Shown one piece after another: positions 10,092-12,724 of a DNA stretch of 64,000 nt. The notes under the pieces were generated by a model. It was not told the origin of the DNA and did no database searches. It was given only the letters and a program-made list of their open reading frames with translations. How positions within the stretch are numbered: the stretch's first letter is position 1; each line of letters opens with the position of its first letter. The position numbers and the translations under genes were made by a program. This stretch comes from Rhodospirillales bacterium (GTDB lineage Bacteria > Pseudomonadota > Alphaproteobacteria > Rhodospirillales > UBA2165): positions 10,214 to 74,213 of the forward strand of contig JASLNU010000108.1 of NCBI GenBank assembly GCA_030745835.1, read 5' to 3'.

Positions 10092-11501
10092 ATGTCCGAT
10101 ATCCTGATCCGCCAGGGTCGCATCATTACCGCATCCGATGATTATACGGCGGATATTCTGGTCTCCGGCGGCCGCATCCGCATGATCGGTGAAGCCATCG
10201 ATGTCGGCGCGGATACCGAAATTCACGATGCCAGCGGTCTTCTGGTGATGCCCGGCGGCATCGATGTGCACACCCATCTGGAAGCCGCCGTCGGCGCCGC
10301 CAACACGGTCGATACCTTCGAGACCGGCAGCATGGCAGCGGCTTTCGGCGGCACCACCACTTTGATCGATTACGCCAAGCAGGACAAAGGCGCGAGCCCG
10401 ATCGCCGGGTTTGCCGATTGGCGCCAGCGGGCGGCCGGCGCCGCCATCGATGTCGCGGCGCATATGATCATTGTCGATTTCAACGAACAGACCCTGATCG
10501 ACATGAAATCGCTTCTCGCCGATGAAGGCATAACCAGTTTCAAGATGTTCATGGTGCGCCCCGGCGAATTGCTGATCGACGATGGCCAGTTGCTCAAAAT
10601 ATTACGCATGACCGGCGACAATGGCGCGCTCTCCTGCGTGCATGCGGAAAACGGCCTGATCATCGACACCCTGGTCGAGGAAGCCGTCGCCGAGGGCCAC
10701 AACGATCCCATCTACCACGCCCTGACGCGGCCCAGTTCCACCGAGGGCGAAGCTACGCACCGCGCCATCCGCATCGCCGAGCTGGCCGAAGCGCCCCTCT
10801 ATATCGTCCATGTGTCGGCCAGCGAAGCGCTCGACAACATCACCGAGGCGCGCGACCGGGGTGTCCCCATATTCGCCGAAACCTGCCCCCATTACCTGTT
10901 CCTGACCGAAGCGGAATATGACAAGCCCGGGTTCGAACCGGCCAAGTATGTCATGTCACCGCCCTTGCGCGCCCAATCGCACCAGGACGCGCTGTGGCGC
11001 GGGCTGGCCAGCGACGATCTGCAGGTGGTGTCCACCGACCATTGCCCGTTCTGTTTTACCGAGCATGCCCACGGCCTCAAATATTCCAAGGAGGTTGGGC
11101 GCGATAGCTTTGCCCGCATCCCCAACGGCGCGCCCGGCGTGGAAACGCGCATGCCGTTGATTTTTTCGGGCGGCGTCGGGCAGGGGCGCATTTCGCTCAA
11201 CCGGTTCGTGCAACTGACCGCGACCGGTCCGGCCAAGCTGTTCGGCCTGTTCCCGAAGAAGGGCACCATCGCCGTCGGCTCGGACGCCGATCTGGTGCTG
11301 TTCGATGGCCAAGAAAGCTGGACCATCCGCGCCGCCGAACATCACAGCCGCGTCGATTACAGCCTGTTCGAGGGGCGCGAAGTGACGGGGCGCGTCAAAA
11401 AGGTGTTTTTGCGCGGCGAGTTGATCGTCGACGGGCAAAGCTGGCTGGGCCAAAAGGGCGGCGGCGAATATTTGCCGCGCGGCGCCTCAGGGAGCTTGTA
11501 G
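10092..11501 (+). CDS. hydA: Dihydropyrimidinase / D-hydantoinase
   Basis: PGGIDVHTH, ITSFKMFM, VHAENG, ETCPHYL, STDHCPF and IPNGAPGVE. Confidence 0.92.
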   Translation: MSDILIRQGRIITASDDYTADILVSGGRIRMIGEAIDVGADTEIHDASGLLVMPGGIDVHTHLEAAVGAANTVDTFETGSMAAAFGGTTTLIDYAKQDKGASPIAGFADWRQRAAGAAIDVAAHMIIVDFNEQTLIDMKSLLADEGITSFKMFMVRPGELLIDDGQLLKILRMTGDNGALSCVHAENGLIIDTLVEEAVAEGHNDPIYHALTRPSSTEGEATHRAIRIAELAEAPLYIVHVSASEALDNITEARDRGVPIFAETCPHYLFLTEAEYDKPGFEPAKYVMSPPLRAQSHQDALWRGLASDDLQVVSTDHCPFCFTEHAHGLKYSKEVGRDSFARIPNGAPGVETRMPLIFSGGVGQGRISLNRFVQLTATGPAKLFGLFPKKGTIAVGSDADLVLFDGQESWTIRAAEHHSRVDYSLFEGREVTGRVKKVFLRGELIVDGQSWLGQKGGGEYLPRGASGSL

Positions 11502-11506
11502 TTCTC

Positions 11507-11780
11507 CGGTAAAAAGTCCTTCGCTGCGCTCAGTGTACTTTTTACCGATTTAATATGGATAAATTCGTCCTTGAGGCGACTCAGCGAACGAATTTGGCAT
11601 GATATCCCGGTCCGATCTCTGATCGGGCCGGTACGGAATTGCAGGCCTTTGGGCAACTTTGCCCAAAGGCCTGCAATTATCACCATGCGAAAAAAAGGCG
11701 CAGGGCCGCACCAAGCCTTCTTTTCTCCTTGGTCATACCTGAATAAAAGTACACCGAGCGAAGCGAGGGACTTTTATTCA
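11507..11780. repeat. Composite six-hairpin element with inverted terminal hairpins (REPIN/MITE-like)
   Basis: Hairpins at 11507-11547, 11561-11595, 11607-11631, 11637-11678 (perfect 20-bp arms), ~11689-11725 and 11740-11780. The first and last are inverted copies of each other. Confidence 0.8.
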
Positions 11781-11782
11781 AA

Positions 11783-12724
11783 CTATTCCTCGGGCGGCGG
11801 CGTGATCCCGGCCTGTTCGGTGATCGGGCGGTAGGCGTCGATCTGCCGGTTGACCTCGAAATTCAGTAGGTTCTGTTTCAATCCGGCGGCCAGGTCCAGG
11901 TCGCAGTCGGCGGTGATCAACTCGTCTTCGCGGGTCGTGCATTGGGCGACGATTTCCCCGGTCGGCGCGACGATGCAGCTGCCGCCGATCAGGCCGGCGC
12001 CGTCCTCGATACCGGCCTTGGCGACGCCCACCACCCACATACAGTTCTGATAGGCGCCGGCCTGCATGCTGAGGCGGTTGTGAAAATCGGAAAGCGGGTT
12101 CTCATGCTCTTCCCAAAAAGAGCGGGTTGGCGTGTTGTATCCGAGGGCCACCATCTCGGCACCCCGGAGCGCCAGGACCCGGTAGGTTTCCGCCCAGCGC
12201 CGGTCGTTGCAGATGCAGGTGCCGAGGACGCCGCCGAAGGCACGAACGGCGGTGAAGCCCAGATCGCCGACTTCGAAATATTTCTTTTCCAGATGCTGAA
12301 TGGCGTAGTTCGGATCCGGCTCAGCCCTGCCGGGCAGGTGAATCTTCCGGTACTTATGAATGATCCGCCCATTGCCATCGACCAGGATGGCGGTGTTGAA
12401 GCGGCGTTTGCGACCCTCAGCCCGGTCGATTTCCCCATAGCCGAGATAAAACCCGATGCCCAGTTTTTTGGCTTCGTCGAACAATTGTTCGGTATCCGGC
12501 GACGGCATTTCGCTTTCGCAATAGGAATCGAGCTCGTCTTCGTCCTCGATTATCCAGCGCGGGAAAAATGTGGTCAGGGCAAGCTCGGGAAAGACCACCA
12601 GTTCGCAGCCCTTGGCGTGGGCGCTGCGCATATGATGCAAAAGCCTTGCGATGACCGACGCGCGGCTGTCATCGCGGCTGATCGGACCTAACTGCGCCGC
12701 CGCCACCGAGATCATGCGCCGCAT
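11783..12724 (-). CDS. N-carbamoyl-D-amino-acid hydrolase (nitrilase superfamily)
   Basis: Catalytic triad motifs FPELAL, YRKIHLPG and CICNDRRW, plus GYNTP and QAGAYQN. Confidence 0.9.
   Translation of the reverse strand: MRRMISVAAAQLGPISRDDSRASVIARLLHHMRSAHAKGCELVVFPELALTTFFPRWIIEDEDELDSYCESEMPSPDTEQLFDEAKKLGIGFYLGYGEIDRAEGRKRRFNTAILVDGNGRIIHKYRKIHLPGRAEPDPNYAIQHLEKKYFEVGDLGFTAVRAFGGVLGTCICNDRRWAETYRVLALRGAEMVALGYNTPTRSFWEEHENPLSDFHNRLSMQAGAYQNCMWVVGVAKAGIEDGAGLIGGSCIVAPTGEIVAQCTTREDELITADCDLDLAAGLKQNLLNFEVNRQIDAYRPITEQAGITPPPEE

Follow-up and report, generated by a model that had tools for sequence, protein, structure and literature searches.

A copy of an orphan, patchily distributed MITE family with hairpin ends fills the gap between two convergent genes of a Rhodospirillales bacterium

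Nearly the whole gap between two convergent genes on contig JASLNU010000108.1 of a Rhodospirillales bacterium can be folded into hairpins, which raises the question of whether this structure serves the neighbouring genes, is a structured RNA or is a piece of mobile DNA. The window referred to below is the whole analysed stretch of 64,000 nucleotides, and positions are counted from its first letter. The gap between the two stop codons (TAG at 11499-11501 on the left, CTA at 11783-11785 on the right) is 281 nt long, and the entire interval is taken up by a repeat element. The features of the locus are as follows.

10092..11501, + strand: dihydropyrimidinase gene (hydA-type), its stop codon completed by the first base of the element
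11501..11782, unstranded: whole element, a diverged copy of a MITE-like repeat of about 300 bp, its first G common to the dihydropyrimidinase TAG stop
11507..11547, - strand: left terminal hairpin with an AT-rich outer stem and 11-nt perfect arms CGGTAAAAAGT/ACTTTTTACCG
11561..11596, unstranded: module A hairpin, stem AAATTCGTCC / GAACGAATTT, conserved loop TTGAGGCGACTCAGC
11607..11631, unstranded: GC-rich hairpin CCGGTCCGATC-TCT-GATCGGGCCGG, belonging to the variable central region
11637..11678, unstranded: central perfect palindrome, 20-nt arms and a 2-nt gap
11689..11725, unstranded: inverted module A, stem GAAAAAAAGGC / GCCTTCTTTTC, loop GCAGGGCCGCACCAA, terminator-like on both strands
11740..11780, + strand: right terminal hairpin, inferred functional orientation TGAATAAAAGTACACCGAG-GCGAAGC-GAGGGACTTTTATTCA, 11-nt perfect arms TGAATAAAAGT/ACTTTTATTCA
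11783..12724, - strand: convergent nitrilase-superfamily amidase gene (carbamoylase-like)

In the profile search, the left gene matched the dihydropyrimidinase model TIGR02033 with 567.6 bits (cut-off 393). The best model for the right gene was aguB with 106 bits, which is under its cut-off of 410 and shows only a nitrilase-superfamily amidase; judged from its sequence, a carbamoylase is plausible. The pair had been named hydA and carbamoylase in the initial annotation, and of these names the first is well founded, while the second has to be widened to the superfamily. The element itself is crossed only by short ORFs overlapping the flanking genes, and is small and non-coding.

The strong folding of the gap was clearly visible in comparison with shuffled sequences. 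The region 11496-11790 folded with z = -11.9 as DNA, -12.1 as RNA of the + strand and -11.4 as RNA of the - strand, and in each of the three cases none of 200 shuffles folded as well. The six consecutive hairpins described at first are, however, one of two alternative folds, since the fold of minimum energy has the two terminal repeats paired to each other, with four local hairpins between them. The repeats reported earlier were all recovered. The inverted 31-nt cores of the terminal hairpins lie at 11512-11542 and 11745-11775 and are 90% complementary (3 mismatches); at up to 3 mismatches the 31-mer occurs twice in the window and not once in 100 shuffles. The arms of the central palindrome, at 11637-11656 and 11659-11678, are perfect, and the GCGAAGC mini-hairpin is found at 11758-11764. 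The outer stems of the two terminal hairpins differ in sequence, yet both are perfectly paired over 11 nt. In the left hairpin, the invariant core AAAGTCCTTC...CTCAGTGTACTTT is accompanied by the inner mini-hairpin GCTGCGC, which reads GCGCAGC on the - strand. Moreover, three terminator-like sites were found in the region against 1.1 expected, two of the three in the inverted module A.

The genome to which the contig belongs (hereafter the own genome), a draft of 163 contigs, was searched for the whole element and by profile (nhmmer). An element of 280-300 nt was found again at C67, C16, C79, C33 and C103, and halves of it lie at four contig ends. The ten nhmmer placements at E <= 1e-45 correspond to eight elements, the window copy included, once flank repeats matching across contig ends are used to join C160 to C103 and C162 to C39. 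Six contig ends of the assembly fall within element copies, and two solo ends are also present, a right one at C60:4117-4167 and a weak left one at C103:33709-33734. The main copies are 97-98% alike. The window copy shares 90% identity with C33, 87% with C67, 86% with C103 and 85% with C16, and 72-73% with the chimeric C79 copy. Part of the interior of the latter (C79:13142-13191, locus L008:1574-1623) is a 50-nt segment of a second repeat family, which has 86-94% matches at 17 places in the sister genome G003 and at one place each in G001 and G002. Judged from its sequence, this 50-nt repeat appears to be nested in the MITE or recombined with it.

The comparison with relatives provided direct evidence of insertion. 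In G003, which belongs to the same genus, the same gene pair is present on contig C59; its members are 86% and 83% identical, and their stops are separated by just CGG (TAG-CGG-TTA). The window locus was not recovered from the other two genus genomes. The site of the C79 copy is empty in all three genus relatives, and there the insertion converted a TAA stop to TA|G; the window copy likewise begins with TA|G. For the C67 and C16 copies the flanks are repetitive or missing from the relatives. The multiple copies and the empty orthologous site agree with the initial suggestion of a repeated, non-autonomous mosaic that exceeds what a terminator needs, and the dispersed copies together with insertion differences among relatives are a characteristic feature of MITEs. 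These results demonstrate that 11501-11782 is an insertion of a non-autonomous transposable element (MITE), the family of which is patchy in the Alphaproteobacteria.

The typical family member is 220-300 bp long, and the paired elements of other genomes span 71-420 nt. Their architecture is a terminal hairpin, a module A hairpin, one or two variable GC-rich palindromes, an inverted module A and an inverted terminal hairpin. Module A recurs in other genera with altered stems, as seen in the comparison of related loci. The GC-rich hairpin at 11607..11631 is kept in the main-family copies, while other taxa have different GC-rich palindromes instead. In the central palindrome the main-family copies read AAGCTTTTGGGC... 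where the window copy reads AGGCCTTTGGGC..., and the opposite arm is altered at the matching positions. The termini are 5'-GTYGNYCGTGAAAAAGTCC...GGACTTTTTCACGNNNGAC-3', so that across taxa an imperfect inverted GTYGNYCGTGAAAAAGTCC stands at both ends; with the 90% complementary 31-nt cores, these tips make up the terminal inverted repeats of a MITE. The consensus of the own-genome copies begins with GTTCCCCGTTAAAAAGTCC... and ends with ...GGACTTTTATTCACGGACGAC.

A short repeat of the target at the junctions is a further property of the family. A junction repeat of 5-6 nt was present in all five testable non-window elements of the own genome (TAATTC, CCAATA, AAATTA, TAAGAT, TAGGC(G)). In Magnetospirillum fulvum it was seen in all seven two-ended copies displayed (TGACCA, TAGGGC, GAATTA, TATTCG, TGGTCA, TTTTTA, CTCTTTA). 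Across taxa, at least 16 of 41 distinct paired elements carry a duplication, 13 by an automated rule (the longest flank repeat located at the canonical junction) and 3 by eye; in about 25 of the 41 the 6-bp duplication is absent or unreadable, and these are presumably old copies. One case was verified against an empty site: an M. fulvum copy has GAATTA on both sides, whereas a single GAATTA is found at the corresponding site of the closest relative (flanks 89% identical), and the element is missing there from all 12 other genomes of the genus. At one of its ends the target hexamer mostly carries TA, which in many cases belongs to a stop codon. The copies of the own genome lie 0-80 nt from the stops of convergent genes, and this accumulation can be explained by the fact that TA-ended target sites are mostly stop codons in these GC-rich genomes.

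The window copy departs from this pattern. The last ~8 nt of the family consensus on the right (CGGACGAC) and the target duplication are absent from it, and its right terminal hairpin misses 12 nt of the inner stem-loop in comparison with the main family. Its 85-90% identity to the main family, the loss of the right tip and the missing duplication are the reasons why it is read as old and disabled. Within the species no polymorphism was observed: in all three marine DNA runs (X2, X10, X12) the contigs that leave hydA continue into the element with 0 differences, and there is none in which the element is skipped. The window copy is probably an old, immobile, fixed and inert relic. As it has neither a duplication nor a canonical right tip, its own mode of insertion would be that of its relatives, from which it is deduced. 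Any present role would be no more than passive, that of a structured spacer or terminator separating the two genes. What occupies the gap is selfish DNA, inserted at a stop codon and retained since, and it should not be annotated as a regulator of pyrimidine or hydantoin genes.

The ends of the element are conserved as a shape and not as sequence alone. The core AGTCCYTC...TCRGTGTACT does not change in 138-139 distinct terminal hairpins, whereas their stems vary, with 94 distinct 9-nt arms in the outer stems of 138 hairpins. At positions 4-9 of the outer stem 4.88 of 6 positions are paired, compared with 3.04 (maximum 3.29) with shuffled partners. The inner stem is self-complementary in every case, although it occurs in many sequences and in lengths of 7-21 nt. 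In a gap-free alignment of 57 distinct hairpins, 97.1% of the cells are paired against 80.3% in shuffles, a value reached by none of 500 shuffles; 170 cells are changed on both sides against 48.7 in shuffles, 10 of the 16 pairs change on both sides, and in slid registers only 33-52% are paired. All these counts come from related copies and not from independent events. The stems of module A behave in a similar way (5.69 of 8 paired versus 3.47 with shuffled partners), in a set that includes some chance matches. The compensatory change first noticed between the two ends of the window copy is thus a family-wide covariation. Covariation in DNA palindromes, and perfect palindromes as such, can arise without selection through hairpin-templated repair. 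However, the invariant bulges and G.A mismatches persist, although they would tend to be lost through repair of this kind.

The hairpins are also asymmetric with respect to the strand. At the Y..R position the counts are 70 for T-A, 45 for C-G, 21 for C-A and 2 for T-G, and in the outer stem, read in one orientation, there are 34 A.C mismatches versus 7 G.T; the C-A and A.C mismatches become wobble pairs on the opposite strand. The favoured strand reads 5'-AAAGTACAC-Y-GA-[stem-loop]-GA-R-GGACTTT-3', with a G-N-A loop whose last A is invariant (57 of 57). The commonest loop forms on this strand are GCGAAGC, GCGTAGC and GCGCAGC, and GCGAAGC is the commonest inner hairpin in the whole family (GCTTCGC on the other strand, 23 of 139). 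This heptamer is reportedly a compact and very stable DNA mini-hairpin, said to have been described by Hirao and colleagues. At both ends the favoured strand is the one whose 3' end lies at the tip of the element, a few bases past the stem. In the left hairpin of the window copy, this family-wide asymmetry of sequence points to the - strand as the folding strand. A transposition complex fits the symmetric arrangement of a favoured 3'-ending strand at both ends better than a transcript does. That the inner hairpin varies in length speaks against a recognition of two half-sites along a straight DNA duplex. For the invariant AGUAC/GGAC, a reading similar to the sarcin-ricin motif was dropped, because the covarying outer helix sets an incompatible register, as the slid controls indicated.

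The element could be a MITE whose hairpins are nonetheless kept by the host as RNA, for mRNA 3'-end protection, termination or insulation, or as a processed small RNA. This reading is unlikely, although several observations agree with it: the copies of the own genome sit in the 3' gaps of convergent genes, module A is terminator-like on both strands and the terminator-like sites exceed the expected number, GNA/GNRA-type loops and tandem G.A pairs are stable in RNA too, and the strand asymmetry is compatible with any single-stranded form. However, the same core and the same covariation are found in near-identical recent copies and across orders, which indicates a constraint on spreading and not on local use. 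Moreover, a favoured strand that is 3'-ending at both ends has the two-fold symmetry of a transpososome, while a transcript is one-directional. No Rfam family matches the element: the search of Rfam 15 with this region of the window, at E <= 1, yielded no more than two matches, both at chance level and on the central palindrome, and the search with 20 related loci at gathering score returned tRNAs only. The RNA run X19 covers only 12096-12251.

The initial annotation had proposed a REPIN/BIME-like mosaic, or an element handled as single-stranded DNA by an HUH-type enzyme. A REPIN/BIME-type element consists of two inverted REP hairpins moved as ssDNA by a RAYT (Y1 HUH) enzyme with no target duplication. 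The design of the present element is indeed similar, with two inverted imperfect hairpins around a spacer that can fold into one long hairpin; solo hairpins exist, mostly directly after stop codons, as in Asticcacaulis, and RAYT-like genes are encoded in the own genome. Such an origin is nevertheless very improbable, as typical copies have 6-bp target duplications, one of them confirmed against an empty site, and enzymes of the HUH type, RAYTs among them, do not produce such duplications. Furthermore, the RAYT gene of the own genome at C49:14272-14598 is flanked by a different 41-nt palindrome (AAAAGTAAACTGTCACCG...), other palindromes lie near the RAYTs at C38 and in G045, and the G043 RAYT has no adjoining palindrome with arms of at least 10 nt. 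None of the RAYT loci examined was bracketed by the AAAGTACAC...GGGACTTT hairpins. Y1_Tnp was not found in two of the five hairpin-bearing genomes searched, M. fulvum and Asticcacaulis, the first of which has the largest recent burst of the element (about 35 copies). On these three grounds, the duplications, the different palindrome and the missing Y1_Tnp matches, an HUH mobiliser is not supported. The C49 locus (C49:13900-14710, L181), in which a Y1 RAYT-like gene lies between two copies of the perfect palindrome AAAAGTAAACTGTCACCG...CGGTGACAGTTTACTTTT, is a separate REP/RAYT system of the own genome, and the same 41-nt palindrome is found at C103:33650-33700, where it adjoins a solo MITE end. 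An ordinary bidirectional terminator region with locally arisen palindromes would suit the position between convergent genes and the terminator-like hairpins, but it is refuted to near certainty by the absence of all 281 nt from the orthologous site of the sister species and by the presence of the element at seven other places in the genome with 72-90% identity.

The reading that probably accounts for these results is a MITE insertion in which a DDE/integrase-type transposase, acting in trans, reads the hairpin ends, the window copy being old and probably immobile. The type of enzyme is deduced from the fixed 6-bp duplication, which means staggered integration, a hallmark of that class. The element would thus be moved in trans by a transposase cutting the target with a 6-bp stagger, and this transposase would recognise the ends in the form of folded hairpins, in each case on the strand that finishes 3' at the tip of the element. 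It is conceivable, though rather doubtful, that the mover is a new type of enzyme, which would recognise, at about 6-10 nt from each 3' end, a single-stranded hairpin in its folded form, with its bulged As, tandem G.A pairs and GNA mini-hairpin, and integrate by a 6-bp staggered cut. If so, structure-specific end recognition, so far a matter of HUH/ssDNA transposons, would be joined with a DDE-like target duplication. Whether hairpin ends can be read by an enzyme that duplicates its target would become clear from the identity of the transposase.

Four of the five features of a MITE are present in the family, the target duplication being a property of the family and not of the window copy, which has no junction repeat; the missing one is an identified parent insertion sequence. 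A complete insertion sequence sharing these ends was sought without success in the own genome, in M. fulvum and in about 190 retrieved loci, these assemblies being drafts. No partner transposase lies beside the 80 genome, about 80 metagenome and 27 viral loci, and none was found among the element-type termini of M. fulvum (terminal 17-mer, up to 2 mismatches) in about 100 listed of 125 matches. In the own genome neither a partner nor an assembled multi-copy insertion sequence was found; its draft state, like that of the other assemblies, leaves room for an unassembled partner. When the ORFs around the 80 genome loci were clustered, the biggest cluster comprised 7 loci, and 12 after the metagenome loci were added; the recurrent neighbours were ABC ATPases, short-chain dehydrogenases, enoyl-CoA hydratases and LeuA. 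Two long-range hairpin pairs were rejected as candidates, L221 as a chance match within an ABC gene and L293 as two separate elements around a DUF5060 glycosidase gene. The rve-type genes of five genomes were rejected as partners as well, as they are IS3-like or IS481-like and have unrelated TG/TGT termini. An IS3-family element at C72:13690-14930 has the ends TGGAGTTCCCCCGGTTT, partly like the left tip of the own-genome MITE (GTTCCCCGTT); this likeness is probably due to chance, as the right tip and the tips of other taxa mismatch. The self-comparison of the genome gave 1618 pairwise matches of at least 200 nt, mostly ~300-nt repeats of several other families, such as those at C108:6228-6644 (about 3.6 kb upstream of the window start), C122:1-341 and C105:5179-5489.

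Bacterial MITEs without a known partner include the Correia/CREE elements of Neisseria and the ERIC elements of enterobacteria. Like them, the present element is small, gene-less, multi-copy, intergenic and strongly folding, with terminal inverted repeats and a target duplication, and in such MITEs, as here, the transposase has often not been identified. Unlike in them, the duplication comprises 6 bp, with TA at one end, and is more than a bare TA, both terminal repeats are themselves hairpins that combine covarying stems with an invariant, asymmetric core, and the interior consists of recurring hairpin modules common to several orders. Bacterial MITEs are dealt with in two reviews (PMC10969869; PMC3184786). 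With respect to REPINs and other REP/BIME elements, the likeness lies in the two inverted imperfect hairpins with a spacer, the solo hairpins after stops, the variable stems around a conserved core and the mosaic organisation. The differences are the target duplications, the lack of a RAYT linked to the motif and the other palindrome of the own-genome RAYT. REPINs, that is, REP/BIME elements with RAYT transposases, are said to have been described by Bertels and Rainey in 2011, and REP elements have a 5' GTAG-type tag.

Among integrase-like DDE transposons, the target duplication has a modal length of 6 bp in the IS481 family, and 5-6 bp are found in the IS1202 group (PMC10045372). The present element resembles these transposons in its 6-bp duplication, and IS481-like genes occur in the own genome and in M. 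fulvum. Unlike the TGT...ACA ends of IS481, it ends with GT...AC, with A or C before the GT in the junctions read, and the IS481-like copies seen here have unrelated termini without hairpins. In IS200/IS605 elements and their miniature derivatives (PATEs), both hairpins are on the same strand and no duplication is made. A trait in common is the subterminal hairpin that is recognised on a single strand, at a distance of a few bases from the point of cleavage, whereas in the present element the strand favoured at one end is not the one favoured at the other, and insertion duplicates 6 bp. The inverted hairpins and a wobble and loop asymmetry favouring the 3'-ending strand at each end set the element apart from IS200/IS605 derivatives.

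Intergenic repeats have also been recognised in Alphaproteobacteria, namely the RIME elements of rhizobia and the CIR repeats of Caulobacter, the latter reportedly described by Chen and Shapiro in 2003. Both are similar to the present family in being intergenic, longer than 100 bp and organised as inverted repeats. Unlike CIR, neither the core nor the modules of the element contain a conserved GANTC (CcrM) site. Identity of the family with CIR or RIME is possible. In the literature on alphaproteobacterial, Magnetospirillum and 6-bp-duplicating bacterial MITEs, a scope that lies outside ISfinder and Repbase, no description of the family was found, and searches of the literature for its core strings returned unrelated papers only. 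The element belongs to an orphan MITE family, at whose ends the shape of a hairpin is conserved on the 3'-ending strand.

The strict hairpin pattern was found in at least 119 stretches of the species-genome collection, in at least 121 stretches of metagenomes and in 27 of viral contigs. Among the matches listed, the named hosts are nearly all Alphaproteobacteria, such as Thalassospiraceae, Magnetospirillum, Phaeospirillum, Kordiimonas, Asticcacaulis and other Caulobacteraceae, and further Rickettsiales MAGs, Rhodobiaceae and Methyloligellaceae. The exact pattern was present in 3 of 400 other genomes that form an even sample of the class. M. fulvum carries 69 hairpins (0 with the reversed-pattern control) and about 35 near-identical elements, and the hairpins that stand alone in it come from copies with truncations or mutations; among 13 genomes of the genus, no other has the element. 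Such a patchy and bursty distribution is the pattern of a mobile element. In a blastn search against plasmids neither the window copy nor an M. fulvum copy had a match. The family is a good test case for the biology of mobile DNA, since it is an orphan that has recently multiplied in a cultured strain (M. fulvum DSM 13234) and has ends conserved as shape on a defined strand. Some of the contig breaks in MAGs of marine Alphaproteobacteria are also due to the family.

Outside the Alphaproteobacteria, the hairpin core was observed at five loci (L042, L047, L059, L088, L117) in Dehalococcoidia, Coriobacteriales and Christensenellaceae MAGs and an unclassified bin. At these loci GGGGYCC precedes the core and the stems are of the type CCCC.../...GGGG, and three of the five (L042, L088, L117) have tRNA genes within about 200 nt. 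These cores may reflect contamination, transfer or an independent use of the motif. At two IMG/VR loci (L186, L208) family hairpins, a solo one and a 140-nt pair, fill intergenic gaps between large ORFs on contigs classed as viral in that database, with no transposase nearby. Finally, in at least three M. fulvum copies (L171:1-300, L166, L167) an element of about 150 nt is nested in a terminal hairpin; with its TACCA...TGGTA ends and a TCA duplication, it is another miniature element.
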